Below, piece after piece: positions 2,706 to 26,424 of a stretch of DNA of 37,607 nt. A model generated the notes under the pieces. That model was not told the DNA's origin. It was given only the letters and a program-made list of their open reading frames with translations, and ran no database searches. Position numbers and translations under genes: made by a program. How positions within the stretch are numbered: the stretch's first letter is position 1; each line of letters starts with the position of its first letter. Origin of the DNA: a virus (taxonomy: Duplodnaviria > Caudoviricetes); IMG/VR virus record IMGVR_UViG_3300010362_000053, positions 1 to 37,607 of that record; one strand, written 5' to 3'.

Positions 2706-2734
2706 AGTATCTGCCGCCTGCAAGCCCGTGTCAA
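2706..2734 (-). promoter_or_regulatory. sigma70-type promoter, candidate late promoter
   Basis: TTGACA-17 bp-GATACT on the minus strand, at the head of the long minus-strand gene run. Confidence 0.55.
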
Positions 2735-2778: not shown

Positions 2779-3021
2779 CTAAGCTGCGGTCGGCAGTGCT
2801 GGCGCGGGGGTGAGCGGCAGCGCGATCACTTCTGCTGCCGCCCTAGTCTCTTGCCCGCGCTCGGCGTGCTCCAAGAGAACGCACTGCGCCTCGGTGTAGG
2901 CCAGCCGACGCCGAACGATCTCGGCTTCGCTGAGCCATTCCGGTTCGTCAGCAACGGCGATTTCGAGCACGGTACGCAGCGCGGCTGCTAGCCGTGCCTC
3001 TGTCGTGTCAATCGTGCTCAT
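2779..3021 (-). CDS. hypothetical protein (80 aa), probably leaderless, ends ...LPTAA
   Basis: Own promoter 7 nt upstream of the ATG; helical sequence. Confidence 0.7.
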   Translation of the reverse strand: MSTIDTTEARLAAALRTVLEIAVADEPEWLSEAEIVRRRLAYTEAQCVLLEHAERGQETRAAAEVIALPLTPAPALPTAA

Positions 3022-3028
3022 GGCGTTG

Positions 3029-3057
3029 ATGGTACTGACTTACCCGGTATCAGACAA
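3029..3057 (-). promoter_or_regulatory. promoter for a leaderless mRNA
   Basis: TTGTCT-17-TACCAT-7 nt-ATG(3021). Confidence 0.7.
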
Positions 3058-3161
3058 CGGCATTCACAGAAACCATACAAAGCGAGAGCGCAGGGCACGG
3101 CCTCCGCAGCACCGCACCCTGCCCTCCCACCTTAGCCCCCCAGGGCTGCCACTATTAGTGA

Positions 3162-3175
3162 CGAACAAGTGTTCG
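3162..3175. promoter_or_regulatory. LexA (SOS/Cheo) box
   Basis: CGAAC-AAGT-GTTCG matches the Gram-positive/actinobacterial consensus CGAAC-RNRY-GTTCG. It is intergenic and just downstream of a possible extended -10, TGcCACTAT (3147-3155). Confidence 0.75.
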
Positions 3176-3712
3176 GGGGTGCCACGACTTAGCGGACGAC
3201 GACAAACGCGGCTGTGGCACCCCCAGACGTGCGAAAGCCCCACCGGCTTGTGTTCCAGTGAGGCTCGCGCTAGCGTTCCAGTTTGTGAAAAGGGAACAGT
3301 GCAAGATCGTAGCAGTTAGCGGCCCAGTCGTCGCTACCCGAGAGTTCATTTGCAACGCCTCGGCCAGCGATCTGCCAATAGGAGAGCAGCGAAAGCCCTG
3401 AGCGCGACACATAGCCAGGGCTACCCGAGCGCCACCAGGGCACCTTGGCGACGAATAGCTGTGTTGAGCGGTGCTGGCTCCGCAACTAAGCCAGGTGGCA
3501 TCCCTGAATCCACTCGAACCCCCGCCCTGTATTTGGGAGGCTAGGAAAGCAGGACAACAGTCCTGCACGCGATAACGGCAGGCCAGGGCGCGTCTGATCC
3601 TAGTGTGCATCTGCACTGCGGCCATGCGGACAAGGCATGACAACACTCTTCCTACGGGGGGAGTGCGCCTTCGGCCAGGCATGAGGGCTTGCGTGCCGCG
3701 TTGGCGCACGTT
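3175..3712 (+). ncRNA. putative large structured RNA (unknown class)
   Basis: No credible ORF; more than 12 helices, long-range closing stems, UACG/UUCG/GAAA tetraloops, G-U pairs favouring the + strand. Confidence 0.65.
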
Positions 3713-3716
3713 GCAA

Positions 3717-3772
3717 GTGTATTGCTGACTGATTGTATTGCGGAGAAGTATGTGTATTGCTGAGTAAGCAAT
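3717..3772. promoter_or_regulatory. operator-like repeats upstream of the wHTH gene
   Basis: TGTATTGC x3 (3718, 3734, 3753), GTGTATTGCTGA x2, plus an ATTGC-N7-GCAAT dyad in an AT-rich patch. Confidence 0.6.
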
Positions 3773-3789
3773 GTTGAAAGAAGTAAATC

Positions 3790-4011
3790 ATGAACAGCGA
3801 AGTCAAGAATGTTGGCAAGACCAGGGATGAATGCGAGGCACAGATCGAGGCTGTGCTGAGAGAGCGCATGAGCACGATCACGGAGATTTCTGAGAAGACA
3901 GGCTTCTCGCGCGGCATGACGACAGGATTGCTGATGCACATGCGCTACTACGGCAACGTTGCTCGGCGCTCTGATGGCCGCTGGCATCTTGCGGGGAAAG
4001 GGCGGCGATGA
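3790..4011 (+). CDS. winged helix-turn-helix DNA-binding protein
   Basis: IEAVLRE...TITEISEKTGFSRGMTTGLL..M...G.V.R..DGRWHL pattern. Confidence 0.75.
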   Translation: MNSEVKNVGKTRDECEAQIEAVLRERMSTITEISEKTGFSRGMTTGLLMHMRYYGNVARRSDGRWHLAGKGRR

Positions 4012-4487
4012 GAACGATTGGAAACGAATCGCTCGGGCTGCGTATGACGCGCGGCAAGCTCGATCGCAGCGGCGTCTTTCACGATGACTGGCCGGACATC
4101 TTCGGTTTGTGGCGCAACCGGCGCATGGATGGCACAGAACTGCGCTACGAGACTGACAAGCGTATTGAGCGCTTCTGCATGTGGCTGGCGCACCGGATGC
4201 CCGCTCGTTTGCGAATGTGGGCGGTCGTGGACGCCACCAACGAAGCACGGCGTCTGTACCCGCATCCCACGGGCTATGCCGGTCCCGATGGCCTCGGCTA
4301 CGCGCACATCCACGACGGTGCACTCAGACGGCGTACAGGAGAGCGGGACGAGCCTCCGATTCCGCGCGGCATCCACATCGAGATTCACGACGACAACACA
4401 GTTCACTTCATTGGCAAGGGCGTGCTGCGCTATGGCCGCTACTTCCATGAGAACGAATGCGCTCACTATGACTCATCCGAATCGTGA
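4008..4487 (+). CDS. hypothetical protein
   Basis: ATGA overlap with the wHTH stop. Confidence 0.65.
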   Translation: MRTIGNESLGLRMTRGKLDRSGVFHDDWPDIFGLWRNRRMDGTELRYETDKRIERFCMWLAHRMPARLRMWAVVDATNEARRLYPHPTGYAGPDGLGYAHIHDGALRRRTGERDEPPIPRGIHIEIHDDNTVHFIGKGVLRYGRYFHENECAHYDSSES

Positions 4488-4833
4488 CGCTAATAGTGAT
4501 GACCCTCAGCATCATCCATTCGACGTGAATGATCGCTCAGTCGCAAATCTGTTGCAGATCTCTGAATGGCTGCGCTGGCGGATGACAGACCGCTCTTTGC
4601 CGCCAGCAGAACTATTGTTGATGGAGCTTGAGGTGCGCGAAGTCGATGCACTGGCGAATCTGCAAGACGCAGTTGACAAAGCCAAGGGCGACGACCTTGA
4701 GGCGAAGATGGCCGTGCCCGAACAGCGCGACAAGCTCAAGGCGCTCAGTATCCAATGGCTCGAAGCTCAGCGGCGGCTCATAGACGGCACCACAGCGGCG
4801 CTTACCAGAAAATCCCAGACAAACGGTCATTGA
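4468..4833 (+). CDS. hypothetical coiled-coil protein
   Basis: 3' half of ORF 4084..4833 from ATG 4468; amphipathic helical sequence. Confidence 0.6.
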   Translation: MTHPNRDANSDDPQHHPFDVNDRSVANLLQISEWLRWRMTDRSLPPAELLLMELEVREVDALANLQDAVDKAKGDDLEAKMAVPEQRDKLKALSIQWLEAQRRLIDGTTAALTRKSQTNGH

Positions 4834-4883: not shown

Positions 4884-5201
4884 ATGATGGCCCAGCAGAA
4901 AGTCAGGATCAAAGCACCGGCCAACCCACAACCTGTCAATAATGGCGGCCCTGACATCAGGGAAATCCTGCGGAACCCGCTGTTGCTGCCATCAGAAGTG
5001 GCAATATTGCTGAGACTACCGCTTAGGGAAGTGCAGAAGCTCGCGCGCTACGGAATCCTGCCGTCAGTGATGGTTGGCGATCACCGGCGCTTCTTGAAAC
5101 GCGACATCTTGCTGTTCCTCACCGAGCAGCGAAACCACGGGCGAGAAGATCCGCATCCTGAGTCTGAGGACGAGCATGAAGATCAGTCCCCCGCAGACTA
5201 A
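4884..5201 (+). CDS. xis: excisionase-like HTH_17/MerR-type DNA-binding protein
   Basis: LLLPSEVAILLRL....V.KLAR.G.LPS..VG.HRRF...DI motif; GGGGAG RBS; near the integrase. Confidence 0.75.
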   Translation: MMAQQKVRIKAPANPQPVNNGGPDIREILRNPLLLPSEVAILLRLPLREVQKLARYGILPSVMVGDHRRFLKRDILLFLTEQRNHGREDPHPESEDEHEDQSPAD

Positions 5202-5231
5202 CCGATAGTCCTGTTGCAATATGTAGGATTA

Positions 5232-5260
5232 TTGACAGAGATTTTGTGCGGGACTACGGT
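5232..5260 (+). promoter_or_regulatory. strong promoter, leaderless transcript
   Basis: TTGACA-17-TACGGT, then 6 nt to the ATG at 5267. Confidence 0.75.
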
Positions 5261-5266
5261 GGGACA

Positions 5267-5575
5267 ATGCGAACACCTCAGCCGTACCGTAAGGCGCGGT
5301 TCATACTGCGCGTGCTCAAATACCTCGCCGGTCAAACGCGCACGAACCCGTGGGAGAACAGCTTCCGCGATCTCGGCCTCTCGCCAGCAGAAGCAGAGAG
5401 CATCGCGTGGGAGGTGACGGGCCTGATCTACGCAGCCGCCGCCAACCTCAACATTCACTACCGCGAGCACCCGCGCGAGCAAGTGCCCGACGAGTGGTAC
5501 GCCCTCGATATCGGGGAAGAACCAGTTCTCAGCTACGCGGAGAAAGCACCTGCCAACAGCGCCGCATCTGATTGA
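5267..5575 (+). CDS. hypothetical protein, independently promoted, convergent with int
   Basis: Own promoter; 3' end overlaps the integrase 3' end (5533-5575). Confidence 0.65.
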   Translation: MRTPQPYRKARFILRVLKYLAGQTRTNPWENSFRDLGLSPAEAESIAWEVTGLIYAAAANLNIHYREHPREQVPDEWYALDIGEEPVLSYAEKAPANSAASD

Positions 5576-7151: not shown

Positions 7152-7727
7152 TCATGCCGGATGACGAGCCTCATTGGCATGCGTCATCACACTTGCTCTG
7201 AGCTTGGCAGCCGCCTTGCCAGCATCAGCTTCGTTCTCGTAGTAGCCAGCGCTGTAACGAACGCCCTTCACGCGAACTTCGGCCCGCCAGAGGCCCGAAT
7301 GGCGGTGGAACGAGACACCTCGATACTTCGAGCGCCCGTGCGCCGCAAGATTCTGCGACTGCTGCCTGGACGAGACGATCCGCAGATTTGAGCGCCGGTT
7401 ATCAAGCTTGTTGCCATCGATGTGATCGACCTCACGCGAGTCGCCGTACTCAAGACCCATGACGACGCGATGGACGAAGATGTTGATGTTCTTACCGTCC
7501 TGCCTCGCGTGACGCCAGGCATAGCCACCTCTGTTGAGTTGCCAGCGCCACTGACAGAGCAATGACAGCATATCCGCATCAACCAATGAGACAACACTAT
7601 TGGTAAGCATCAGATACGCAGCATTGGGGATTGCTGGCAAACGCTCAAGTCGTCGGCGCGCGATTGCCTCGCCAATTCCGTGCAGCGCTCTTGATCGCCC
7701 ACCAGGCAGTTGCACAAGTGCAGTCAT
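7152..7727 (-). CDS. HNH-AP2 homing endonuclease
   Basis: VHRVVM...VDHIDGNKLDNRRSNLR plus SKYRGVS...WRA....G......GYY..E..A AP2 domain; TAAAAT -10 located 6 nt before the ATG. Confidence 0.9.
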   Translation of the reverse strand: MTALVQLPGGRSRALHGIGEAIARRRLERLPAIPNAAYLMLTNSVVSLVDADMLSLLCQWRWQLNRGGYAWRHARQDGKNINIFVHRVVMGLEYGDSREVDHIDGNKLDNRRSNLRIVSSRQQSQNLAAHGRSKYRGVSFHRHSGLWRAEVRVKGVRYSAGYYENEADAGKAAAKLRASVMTHANEARHPA

Positions 7728-7754
7728 GGGCGCATTTTACCGCAGTACCGCTTG

Positions 7755-8060
7755 GGCGGGTTCCGTGGTTCCGTTTCTCAGCGTTCCACCATTGGTGGAA
7801 TGATTGCTGTCGGCTCAGCAGGATTGATGTCATCACTATTGATGTCACTATTACTGTCGATAAGCGTGAGTCGGGTGTGACGGTTCAGGCGCAGCTATTT
7901 CACGCTGGCTCGTTGGTAGCGACTACTCACTAACCTCGATATCCGGGTGATCCCAGCGACCTCTGCTGTCACGCTGCGGTTTGCGGAAGTGCAGGTGAAG
8001 TGTCACACCCGACTCGGAAACCTGCTACTGTGAACCGTCACAGTAACTTCGAGTGGCGTA
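7755..8060. other. candidate replication origin / repeat-rich control region
   Basis: 14-bp IR (7868-7881 / 8002-8015), 11-bp IR (7877-7887 / 8031-8041), many GTCAC motifs, GTTCC x3 and ATTGATGTCA x2, all upstream of the replication gene. Confidence 0.5.
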
Positions 8061-8152
8061 TTTTGGCTCCGCGTAGCCAAAAAGGAGGCCCCCGAGGTGG
8101 GATGAAGCCACCGCGAGGGCCGAAGCCACACCGGGCACAGGAGGTGCCCGAT

Positions 8153-23067: not shown

Positions 23068-23408
23068 GCCGCTTCCTCCCCTGACGTGCGACGCAGCGAG
23101 CATTCGACGTGATGCTGCTGGCCGGTGCGCGGATTGCGCGCATACCACGGCGGGCCTATTACTTCGTACTGCCTTCCGTCAACGATGACGACATCGTTCG
23201 TATCGAGAAGCGTGTCGGGAGGCAGGAACAGCACAAAGTCACCGACAGCGACAGCATCGCCCTCTTCGGTGCGGCGCTGTTGTTGCAGTTCGCAAACAGT
23301 GTTGAGGCGAGTTTCGCTCGGAATCTCATTGCCGTAGATATCCAGAATTGTGCCGTCAGATGAGCGCCTGACGATTGTCGCTGGCAGTGTCAGCAAGTCG
23401 CTAATCAT
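23064..23408 (-). CDS. head-to-tail stopper (head closure)
   Basis: DIYGN...LFLPP...D.V.VDG..YEV.G.P...HHVE..LRR motif. Confidence 0.85.
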   Translation of the reverse strand: MISDLLTLPATIVRRSSDGTILDIYGNEIPSETRLNTVCELQQQRRTEEGDAVAVGDFVLFLPPDTLLDTNDVVIVDGRQYEVIGPPWYARNPRTGQQHHVECSLRRTSGEEAA

Positions 23409-23815
23409 GACGTTGCCCTCCGCTTACGCCTGTCCTCACGCTGGCACCGTCGGCAGATGTAGGCGTTATCCGGCCGAATGTAAAGATTATCACCACTCAG
23501 CGGATGTCCATTCTTGCAGTGGGTCCGCCGACGATGGTTGGCGTCCTGCTGCTCGCGAGTCGCCCACTGGCAGTTGCTCTTCTCGTAGTTCCCATCGTTG
23601 TCGATGCGATCGAGCGTCATACCCTGCGGACGCTCGCCCATATCAGCGAGGAAGTTGGCAAACACTCGCCAGCGCTCACAAACAGTGATGCCGCGTCCAC
23701 CGTATGCGGGATACCTATGGTGAGCAACATAGGTGCAACGTTGGATCATGTTCTTCCACGTCACGTATGTTGGCGAAACGTGTCCGACCCGAGCGTGACC
23801 GTGGACGCTAGTCAC
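23405..23815 (-). CDS. HNH-family endonuclease with THCxNGH...CRxC tail
   Basis: W.NM.QRC...YGGRGI.VCERW..F.NFL.DMG.RP...TLDRIDNDGNYE..NC.WAT motif. Confidence 0.85.
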   Translation of the reverse strand: MTSVHGHARVGHVSPTYVTWKNMIQRCTYVAHHRYPAYGGRGITVCERWRVFANFLADMGERPQGMTLDRIDNDGNYEKSNCQWATREQQDANHRRRTHCKNGHPLSGDNLYIRPDNAYICRRCQREDRRKRRATS

Positions 23816-24507
23816 GTCTGCTCCAACGGTATGTCGAGTCCGAGATCATGCCGAGCCTCACTCACTATTTTACCCATGCGGTCAACATCGTGCCGAGCGT
23901 TCGCATAACGGTTACGCAGCCGCCAGTTTGCATCGCTGCCCTGGCGCCGGGAGACGCGCCATTGCGGTTCGTGCCACAGATGCACCAACGGCTCTCTGCC
24001 CCGCCACGGAGGCCCGAGGAGGCACCACAGCGCCATTGCATGCGACTCATCCTCATGCCCCCAGCCGACGAAGCGAGGATCGAGTGGGATATCCAGAAGC
24101 GTGTCGTGAGTAGTGACAATGATCCCGCCACCAGGCATCCCAACGTACTTCGAGCGCTCAAGATCCTGCTCAGTCCAATCCTCGCCGCGTAGTAGGGCCT
24201 CTGTGCCGGTCTGAGAGAGCCGATAGACCTCCCAGTGCGGAATTGCCCACGCCGCGCCGTCCTGCACGGCCTGGATTGCTTCTATGAGGCCATCCGTCCA
24301 GCAGTCGGCGTCGTGAAGAACAATGATGTCGGCTACCAAGCCCCTGACAGCAGGCATGATCGCTCGCGCTTTGATCCATTCCGGGCCGCTGTACGACGTG
24401 ATGATCGGCTTGATATCGAGCGCAGCAAGCTTGACGTAGACCCAATCGAGAGCGCGTAAACGTGCCCTAGAGGCTTGGAACCACGGAACCACTAGCTCTG
24501 TCGCCAT
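23812..24507 (-). CDS. glycosyltransferase, GT-A fold (GT2/GT7-like)
   Basis: LVVPW, DAD motif, DPRFVGWGHED, HLWH. Confidence 0.85.
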   Translation of the reverse strand: MATELVVPWFQASRARLRALDWVYVKLAALDIKPIITSYSGPEWIKARAIMPAVRGLVADIIVLHDADCWTDGLIEAIQAVQDGAAWAIPHWEVYRLSQTGTEALLRGEDWTEQDLERSKYVGMPGGGIIVTTHDTLLDIPLDPRFVGWGHEDESHAMALWCLLGPPWRGREPLVHLWHEPQWRVSRRQGSDANWRLRNRYANARHDVDRMGKIVSEARHDLGLDIPLEQT

Positions 24508-25163
24508 TCCTGTCTCCGCTGCTCGAACAGAGCCGCATCCTCATTCCAGCGCTGCTTTGCGCCTTCGGCATACGTGTCATCCATTTCACGCTTGCCCCAA
24601 TCCGGGTGATGGTGCTCAATCACGCAGGTGTCAACAAACTTGGCGACTCCACGATGCTCGGCAAGCTGCCACAGTTCCGTTTCCGCGAAGTTGTGGTGAT
24701 AGCCCTCATGCATAGCGACACCAGGCGGCTCCTGCCACGCCCCACCCGGATCATCGATATACGACCGGCGTACAATCGGCATCGTGCAGTTGTCATGATT
24801 CGCCGTACTGGGAGAGAGATCATCCGGCGCAACGACATCGACACCATCGGCAAAGGCGTCCATCACCGCTTGATACCAGCCATCGTGGAAACTCACGTCA
24901 TCATTAGTGATAGTGACGAATGGCTCCTCACCAGCGCTCACGCCTGTATTGACAGCAGGCGGATATCCGCGCCGCTTCGTCTCCACAGCCGTGAATGGTC
25001 CGTCAAGTCTCTTGAGAAACATGCCGGTCATATCGTCGGCCTGATCAACCACGAAGTAGATGTAGAACGCACCCGGTGGAGTAGTCTTGACAATGTTCCA
25101 AACCAGCCGCCCGAGCAGATGTGAGCGCCAGAGGGTCGGGATGACTATTGACATTTCCTTCAT
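24492..25163 (-). CDS. glycosyltransferase family 2-like
   Basis: SIVIPT..R, NDD motif, HNFAETEL, IEHHHP. Confidence 0.85.
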   Translation of the reverse strand: MKEMSIVIPTLWRSHLLGRLVWNIVKTTPPGAFYIYFVVDQADDMTGMFLKRLDGPFTAVETKRRGYPPAVNTGVSAGEEPFVTITNDDVSFHDGWYQAVMDAFADGVDVVAPDDLSPSTANHDNCTMPIVRRSYIDDPGGAWQEPPGVAMHEGYHHNFAETELWQLAEHRGVAKFVDTCVIEHHHPDWGKREMDDTYAEGAKQRWNEDAALFEQRRQEWRQS

Positions 25164-25171
25164 GGCACTGG

Positions 25172-25789
25172 TTACGTGGTTACGGTTTCACCTAGTACGT
25201 CTGTGAGGATGCGCTGATGCCAGTAGTGCCGTCCCTGCCACGCCACTCCTGCATGGTTGCGCGAGTCTCGGCGTAGATGCTGGCGATAGACCGCGCCCGT
25301 GATCGCCTCGAACGTCGCACCGGCTCTGTAGCACTTGAGCCACAGCGCCCAATCCTCATAGATCGGGTAGTCATCAAAGCCACCCACCGATCGCAGCAGT
25401 TCCGTGCGCGCTGCACCACCAATGACAATCCAGCCACCTTCTAGGAGGCAGTCAGGAGTGCAGACGTGCTGATGGCCGTGAACCTTCGGCATGAACATCT
25501 TGCGCACCGCTATGCCATCGCGGCAAAGCTGAACCAACGGCGCACGTACGTCGGCGGTTCCCTGCGCCATCGCCTCGACATAGCCGGGTTCCAGTTCGTC
25601 GTCGCCATCAAGGAAAATCGTGTACTCAGTGTTGACAGCAGCTAGACCATCGTTGCGCGCCTGGTGGAGATTGTCGCCGTGGATATGAATGACCGGCGCT
25701 TGGCTCTCTGCCGATGTTGCCGCACGCTCGCCTAACTCGGCCCAGGAGCGATCTCCGTACGTCGCTACGACAACAGTGAAGTCGCTCAT
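25172..25789 (-). CDS. glycosyltransferase family 2
   Basis: VVVATY, ARN.GL, FLDGDD, GGFD...EDWALWL; ATGA overlap at 25786-25789. Confidence 0.88.
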   Translation of the reverse strand: MSDFTVVVATYGDRSWAELGERAATSAESQAPVIHIHGDNLHQARNDGLAAVNTEYTIFLDGDDELEPGYVEAMAQGTADVRAPLVQLCRDGIAVRKMFMPKVHGHQHVCTPDCLLEGGWIVIGGAARTELLRSVGGFDDYPIYEDWALWLKCYRAGATFEAITGAVYRQHLRRDSRNHAGVAWQGRHYWHQRILTDVLGETVTT

Positions 25790-26424
25790 TCCAGATGCCA
25801 GATCCGTCGCGACTTCCACAGCCGCCGATCCTCACGAATCGTGCGACGGCCCTTGATGTACGTCTGATCCCAGGCAAGTTCACCCGTATCGGGATGAAGA
25901 TGCTTGACACAAGCGTCCTCGGCATAGGCATAGACGCCGCGCTTCTGTGCTGTGGCAATCAGTTCATCGTCAACACAGTTGTGGGCGTACAGCGTGCAGA
26001 GCGGTCCTTGCTCGCCTGTGATGACAGGCTGCTCGGCGTAGGAGCGCGTGATCAGGAAGTGCGTCGTGTGCTCACGCGAGCGCTTGATCAGATCGTTGAT
26101 ACCGACGACCTGAACGCCATCCTTGAGCAGCGCTGACGCCGCCTCAAACCATCCCGACTGCGGACTGAGATCATCCGCACCAAGGAAGATCAACGGCTCA
26201 TCTGTGAGCCTGACAGCGGTGTTGATCTTCTCGGCGTAGTTGACCTTGCGGACAAACAGGATCTCGCCGCCTGCTGCATGGATGGCCTCGATCTCCGCTT
26301 GATCATCGGGATCGGGGATGAAGTACAGGCTGTAGTCAGGAGTATTGTCAGCAAACGCCTTGAGCAACGGCACAACTCGCTCTGGTCGGCGCAGCACAGG
26401 AACAAGAACAGCGAGGCGACTCAC
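25786..26424 (-). CDS. glycosyltransferase family 2-like
   Basis: AVLVP..RR, FLGADD, HNCVDDEL, VKHLHP. Confidence 0.85.
   Translation of the reverse strand: MSRLAVLVPVLRRPERVVPLLKAFADNTPDYSLYFIPDPDDQAEIEAIHAAGGEILFVRKVNYAEKINTAVRLTDEPLIFLGADDLSPQSGWFEAASALLKDGVQVVGINDLIKRSREHTTHFLITRSYAEQPVITGEQGPLCTLYAHNCVDDELIATAQKRGVYAYAEDACVKHLHPDTGELAWDQTYIKGRRTIREDRRLWKSRRIWHLE

Follow-up and report, generated by a model that had tools for sequence, protein, structure and literature searches.

A probable EGFOA RNA, extended by a structured 3′ domain, downstream of a conserved LexA box in the gene-free gap of an uncultured phage

A gap of 768 nt (3022-3789) in the genome of an uncultured phage, in which no ORF has a family match, raises the question whether it gives rise to a functional RNA and, if so, of which kind and under which control. 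In the window, that is, the whole 37,607-nt stretch of DNA analysed here, the gap lies between a leftward gene for an 80-aa protein and the first rightward gene, which begins at 3790. The first-pass annotation had described 3175-3712 as one ornately folded RNA of about 540 nt that starts at a LexA box and represents a new class, acting in trans, as a ribozyme or as a cis antiterminator or switch of the early operon. The virus record comprises these 37,607 nt and is complete to an estimated 62%. The listed holder of its sequence is one soil metagenome, with none of RNA, and no variants were seen in the one DNA run that is possibly its source. Terminase, portal, capsid, tape-measure, integrase, excisionase-like and several HNH genes are present. 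From these genes the phage is taken as a temperate siphophage. The best of the terminase matches listed were to Actinomycetota phages at about 30% identity, which makes an actinobacterial host group likely.

The coding status of the gap was examined with a codon model. The six ORFs overlapping the gap scored between -0.23 and +0.02 and the flanking genes +0.06 and +0.09, on a scale where two other real genes of the phage also fall slightly below zero. None of the six matches a family, and the stretch is thus non-coding, as had been proposed. A reading in which the region codes for a 184-aa antisense ORF (3155-3709, -), its stems being a chance product of GC richness, can point to the long open frame and to the unremarkable folding z of the entire region. 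Against this, the codon score of the ORF is -0.18, it has neither a family match nor similarity to the antisense ORF in the corresponding slot of a sister phage (L010, described below), and the region holds an EGFOA match with compensated helices. The antisense coding reading is hence largely refuted and deserves next to no credence.

The genes on the two sides of the gap were also characterised. The 80-aa gene (2779-3021, -) runs divergently from the putative RNA, is predicted to encode a two-helix protein and is an alternative target of the LexA box. Its counterpart at the same position in L010 is 40% identical; 13 matches including itself were found, and searches with Pfam, PHROG and the fold of the two-helix model gave none. 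A near-consensus sigma-70-type promoter (10/12) is located at 2706-2734 (-), ahead of the leftward HNH-to-terminase genes, and because of it the 80-aa gene may form a short unit of its own. The first rightward gene (3790-4011, +; 73 aa) shows a weak winged-HTH match (PF13693, E 0.0075) that is below the cut-off.

To what extent does the flagged region fold as one RNA? All 13 helices that had been listed are fully complementary, but in the ensemble of the full-length sequence the mean pair probability of nine of them is no higher than 0.12. The 11-bp 5′ hairpin (3175-3224, +) formed with a pair probability of 1.0 and is above chance, a local Watson-Crick helix as long being found in 0/150 shuffles. 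The long-range nested closing stems did not stand up to the same comparison, as a helix of at least 8 bp joining the initial 110 nt to the final 60 nt appeared in 113/150 shuffles. Because such helices are common in shuffled sequence, the closing stems provide no evidence for a single fold. The loop motifs C(UACG)G, C(UUCG)G and two GC-GAAA-GC are all present, but the stem of the C(UUCG)G loop is interrupted. The folding z against shuffles, a check that the first-pass annotation had suggested, was modest (-2.09 on the + strand and -1.90 on the - strand). Among control windows of the same length from the same genome, 5/34 reached -2.09 or lower, in a run of 12 shuffles in which the flagged region itself scored -1.48 and one control overlapped it.

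The stability was concentrated in the 3′ half. In sub-windows of our own choice, z was -0.3, -0.3 and +1.1 for the three within 3226-3500, the middle (3317-3475) folding no better than shuffles (-0.3 and +1.1), and -2.5 and -3.05 for 3533-3610 and 3610-3720 respectively; 3495-3610 as a whole gave +0.1 under a model that cannot draw pseudoknots. A structured 3′ domain (3605-3715, +) with the 9-bp hairpin capped by C(UACG)G had a z of -2.4 on the + strand and -0.2 on the - strand, an asymmetry that fits an RNA on the + strand. Thus, the 3′ half (3495-3715) has support as a structured + strand non-coding RNA, but the proposal of a single ornate fold of 540 nt is not supported, with closing stems at chance level and a middle and 3′ part that align with L010 no better than chance. 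Beyond the 3′ domain, three 12-nt direct repeats occur at 3717-3763 in a spacer of 38% GC just before the HTH-like gene at 3790. They are absent from the repeats found in the L010 slot. The repeats are operator-like and likely mark a separate control region of the rightward genes.

The identity of the 3′ half was addressed by Rfam search. EGFOA (RF02955) was matched at 3507-3605 (+) with 44.7 bits against a gathering cut-off of 37.7 (E 4.5e-5), across the full model (positions 1-108) and as the sole match in the window above its gathering score. The first-pass annotation had itself named an Rfam match as what would speak against novelty, and the idea of a new class is refuted by it. The match sits in a large intergenic gap that holds no protein gene, a setting expected of EGFOA. 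The three-way junction of the earlier description (3541-3603) was recovered, since the minimum-energy fold of 3533-3610 equals the EGFOA model structure (z -2.5). At E up to 5, the 5′ part of the window gave no match approaching the cut-off of any Rfam family. The ROOL, GOLLD and OLE models did not match the window, and ARAGORN called 0 tmRNA or tRNA genes in the window and in L010. No model of RNase P, group I/II introns or self-cleaving ribozymes matched either.

Classic members of the family were fetched for comparison; 5/5 loci (among L004-L008) were confirmed, giving three distinct sequences. In each of these, two strands lying upstream, unpaired in the printed Rfam model, can pair with the conserved loop, and the same holds in the window. 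Pseudoknot 1 would form here between 3502-3506 and 3584-3588 (+; CCCUG/CAGGG). It is CCCAG/CUGGG in L007 and CUCAG/CUGAG in L005 and L006, and four of the five pairs are possible in L004 and L008. Pseudoknot 2 would join 3524-3530, with C3527 bulged, to 3578-3583 (+) and also shows double-sided changes. At pseudoknot 1 an A-U pair becomes U-A in the window, and L005 and L006 show another change, from C-G to U-A. At pseudoknot 2 a U-A pair of the family is C-G in the window, and one pair has gone from both strands. Three double-sided changes in total preserve both non-nested helices, and membership is thereby supported independently of the Rfam score, though four distinct sequences are too few for a formal covariation statistic. 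By sequence and predicted pairing, 3507-3605 very probably belongs to EGFOA.

The window shares with the classic members the full-model match, the three-way junction, the loop pairing with two upstream strands and the large gene-free gap. It differs in its GC-rich, divergent core with compensated helices, in its likely actinobacterial temperate siphophage, and in 330 nt of unrelated 5′ sequence with a perfect LexA box upstream. EGFOA-assoc-1 (RF02970; 250 nt) stops 11 nt before the EGFOA core in L005 and L006, and a stable structured 3′ flank is present in two of the three distinct classic members. These two features make it probable that the Rfam model is confined to the central part of longer RNAs. 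The domain at 3605-3715 is a probable 3′ extension of the EGFOA RNA. A cryo-EM preprint describes 3′-terminal P5/P7 helices in EGFOA (10.64898/2026.07.01.735769). As in L005 and L006, where EGFOA-assoc-1 occupies that place, a structured region of a few hundred nt lies directly 5′ of the core, but neither RF02970 nor any other associated model matched the window at E up to 5. ROOL and GOLLD are likewise large orphan phage RNAs with pseudoknots and self-assembly, as far as the accessible parts of PMC12286853 and PMC5737381 describe them; the window differs from them in having no match to their models, no tRNA and no support for ornate structure along the whole region.

Relatives of the whole region were searched for in several ways. 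With the region as a BLASTN query, annotated phages and plasmids yielded short chance pieces or nothing, and the same was true of L004 and of the L010 slot. Pattern scans gave 0 matches in one case and two loci in another, neither of them EGFOA; of 12 loci in a further scan one was real, the L010 contig, and of 17 in the next none. The 24 loci of yet another scan showed no similarity by nhmmer, with 0 Rfam matches in the 20 put through cmscan. Of three protein-led searches, one gave no locus, one only the L010 contig, and one the window's own contig with a weak short match. GTDB genome samples had matches in 0/101 and 0/401 genomes, and in a third sample in 3/401 compared with five control matches; these samples centred on Bacillota genomes plus one other genome and did not knowingly cover the likely actinobacterial host group.

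L010 is the one locus among 11 with related terminases that reaches and matches the slot; its terminase is 75% identical. At and beside its slot (4950-5356, -), L010 keeps the 80-aa gene, the AT-rich segment and the perfect LexA box. A 5′ module is shared, which in the window occupies 3269-3315 (+) and consists of an inner stem (3275-3279/3293-3297) capped by a GUGA loop, an outer stem (3269-3274/3309-3313) and a linker of 11 nt. The local alignment of this 45-nt module with L010 was beaten by 3/500 shuffles, for a segment picked after the match had been seen. Two of its pairs are altered on both sides, as read by eye from the two sequences, and this favours pairing of 3293-3297 with 3275-3279 over the stem 3251-3256/3293-3298 drawn in the first-pass annotation. 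An 8-nt motif (3479-3486, +) lies at an offset of 324 from the LexA box in both phages. Near-diagonal exact matches between window and L010 were reached by 9/2000 shuffles, and a chain of short motifs collinear across both slots up to the 3′ end by 13/1000.

The remainder of the slot is less alike. Shuffles aligned as well in 59/500 cases for the whole slot, in 203/500 for the middle (3317-3475) and in 375/500 for the 3′ part, and the comparison of co-located helices between window and L010 was too noisy to use. L010 carries a different hairpin where the window has the 11-bp 5′ stem, and a stable hairpin domain of its own at 5212-5310 (z -3.8). No EGFOA match, nor any other Rfam match, was obtained in the L010 slot. 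A helix resembling pseudoknot 2 of EGFOA can be formed there (89/5000 shuffles), but without the conserved loop and junction it is no more than a hint. The slot stops about 30 nt before the next start codon, and the first downstream genes of window and L010 differ. On present evidence the slot looks modular, because L010 keeps the box and the 5′ module while it has no EGFOA match and its middle and 3′ portions are unalike. The same box without an EGFOA core also suggests that the core is dispensable or exchangeable.

What controls this slot? The LexA (SOS) box of the Gram-positive/actinobacterial type (3162-3175) is, as had been noted, a perfect palindrome (CGAAC-N4-GTTCG) and the only one in the window. 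L010 likewise has a single perfect box in its record, in the same place at the 5′ edge of the slot. The accessible text on S. venezuelae gives the actinobacterial consensus as tCGAAC-N4-GNNCGa (PMC9380542); the 14-bp core fits it, with the weak outer t/a positions unmatched in the window. The AT-rich segment next to the box (3150-3161), common to L010, is a putative -10 region and a candidate for either direction. No sigma-70 promoter was called next to the box in the window or in L010, and within the window slot no promoter, terminator or U-tailed terminator was called. The leftward 80-aa gene begins only about 140 nt from the box, and beside the L010 box the best TANNNT-like hexamer points leftward. 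A CI-type repressor was not detected in the scanned ORFs; with a record only 62% complete, such a gene could be missing. For phage GIL01 the accessible text describes direct control of promoter P1 by host LexA (PMC4551915). Both cases have in common host LexA boxes that couple, or in the window would couple, phage lytic expression to DNA damage, but in the window a single perfect box precedes a non-coding region and a small divergent gene, and its phage is an integrating siphophage in which no gp7-like co-repressor was identified. In a literature search on LexA-controlled ncRNAs of actinobacterial prophages, nearly all of the papers listed were judged by title and abstract opening, and none of these showed such a phage RNA. 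No perfect box was seen beside the classic EGFOA loci, the nearest being about 58 kb off in the one whole record searched. Control of the RNA by LexA is, on balance, slightly favoured. A single transcript of about 540 nt has somewhat less than an even chance.

The EGFOA match, the compensated non-nested helices, the strand-specific 3′ fold, the conserved box and the non-coding status are direct observations. The explanation preferred, only tentatively, from among those considered is that an EGFOA motif, lengthened by a structured 3′ domain and placed downstream of the conserved LexA box, forms a damage-induced, self-assembling, trans-acting phage ncRNA. In the lysogen, host LexA would repress a promoter overlapping the box, as suggested by the fit to the consensus, the lack of a CI-type repressor among the ORFs and the GIL01 precedent. 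RecA-driven cleavage of LexA upon DNA damage would open this promoter, and a + strand transcript would begin at about 3165-3175, cross the shared 5′ module and end at about 3715. The EGFOA domain would then assemble into oligomers made of RNA alone; in the accessible text of the preprint two other members do so in vitro, one as a trimer or hexamer and one as a strand-swapped dimer (10.64898/2026.07.01.735769). The assembly could serve as scaffold or decoy during lytic growth, as proposed for ROOL and GOLLD. The oligomers in vitro, and the rise of GOLLD during lysis in the part of PMC12286853 available, are the grounds on which a self-assembling RNA acting in trans is preferred. Several observations weigh against this explanation: no promoter is called at the box and its direction is not settled, the middle (3317-3475) resembles L010 only at chance level and has no fold beyond shuffles, L010 has the box with no EGFOA match, no perfect box was seen adjoining the classic loci, and the oligomers are those of other members and in vitro only.

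The serious competitor, somewhat less probable, is a composite slot in which the box controls mainly the 80-aa gene or a short 5′ RNA, and an EGFOA RNA of about 220 nt (3495-3715), acquired separately, has ends of its own. Retention of the box, the 80-aa gene and the 5′ module in L010 without a detectable EGFOA agrees with it, as do the chance-level closing stems, the leftward hexamer of the L010 box and the published EGFOA constructs, which are below 200 nt in the accessible text (10.64898/2026.07.01.735769). The failure to call a promoter or terminator within the slot argues against it, and so do the motifs that stay collinear through the 3′ end (13/1000 shuffles). The first-pass proposal of a cis antiterminator or switch, here a leader of the rightward early operon leading to the excisionase, is improbable. 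RNA and downstream genes are on the same strand, no U-tailed terminator is called, and the L010 slot ends about 30 nt ahead of the next start codon; but the AT-rich spacer with its three repeats separates the RNA from the next gene and suggests another control region, which makes a switch less likely, the first downstream genes are not the same in window and L010, and the classic EGFOA loci precede unrelated genes.

Catalysis and packaging rank below these. The compact double-pseudoknot core with its conserved unpaired residues and two non-nested helices could be imagined as a self-cleaving or splicing ribozyme, which was also among the first-pass ideas. A resemblance of the L010 sequence to P4 of group I introns was a lead only. 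Apparent likenesses to motifs of RNase P and of group I and group II introns found no support in cmscan. No ribozyme, intron or RNase P family matched the window or the L010 slot at E up to 5, and in the accessible preprint text full-length EGFOA RNAs are imaged as assemblies with no mention of cleavage (10.64898/2026.07.01.735769); a ribozyme is thus very improbable. A role in DNA packaging is rated lower still. The phi29 pRNA is a packaging RNA, and on the joined map the terminase genes follow the slot after about 4 kb. A hexamer is among the oligomers of EGFOA in the same preprint text (10.64898/2026.07.01.735769). Against such a role, this phage encodes a small terminase subunit (PF25673), and L010, with a terminase 75% identical, has no detectable EGFOA.

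The locus thus likely represents a known orphan RNA in an enlarged form that is induced by DNA damage, and not a new class; what it adds is the link to LexA and a sister slot without EGFOA. In the literature on EGFOA (RF02955) the cryo-EM preprint was the sole relevant paper found, the original description being located in the supplement of PMC5737381, outside the text covered. The accessible texts give a structure for EGFOA, yet no function and no expression condition. Its position behind a conserved LexA box predicts when it would be made, namely upon DNA damage and prophage induction, and the compensated pseudoknots define exact mutations. A bolder and rather doubtful extension of the preferred explanation is that the LexA-boxed slot is a modular SOS-induced RNA, in which a previously undescribed 5′ scaffold (the GUGA-loop module and the motifs at fixed distance) carries an exchangeable 3′ cargo. 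That this cargo is EGFOA in the window and a different fold in L010 is equally speculative. If this were true, host LexA would directly time an RNA-only assembly at prophage induction, and the slot would offer the first regulatory handle on EGFOA together with a natural domain swap. The gain is limited by an uncultured phage and a single relative that reaches the slot.

Other features of the record were observed. Four HNH endonuclease genes are present on the 37-kb record (559-900, 2145-2615, 7152-7727 and 23405-23815). Four glycosyltransferase-like genes stand in tandem within the head-to-tail connector region (23812-26424, -), a row that suggests virion glycosylation. The gene at 4462-4830 (+) encodes a protein of about 121 aa, with a conserved NGH at its end, from a family without a Pfam match; its 13 matches, including the window's own and that of L010, make it a good marker of the phage group. 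A second gene-poor stretch (7730-8140, +), upstream of a DUF3631 gene, has a predicted fold more stable than that of the flagged region (z -4.1, 0/100 shuffles). It gave no credible Rfam match and no match in three related records. A perfect 14-bp inverted repeat (7868-7881/8002-8015) lies inside this stretch, which could represent an origin of replication or another RNA.
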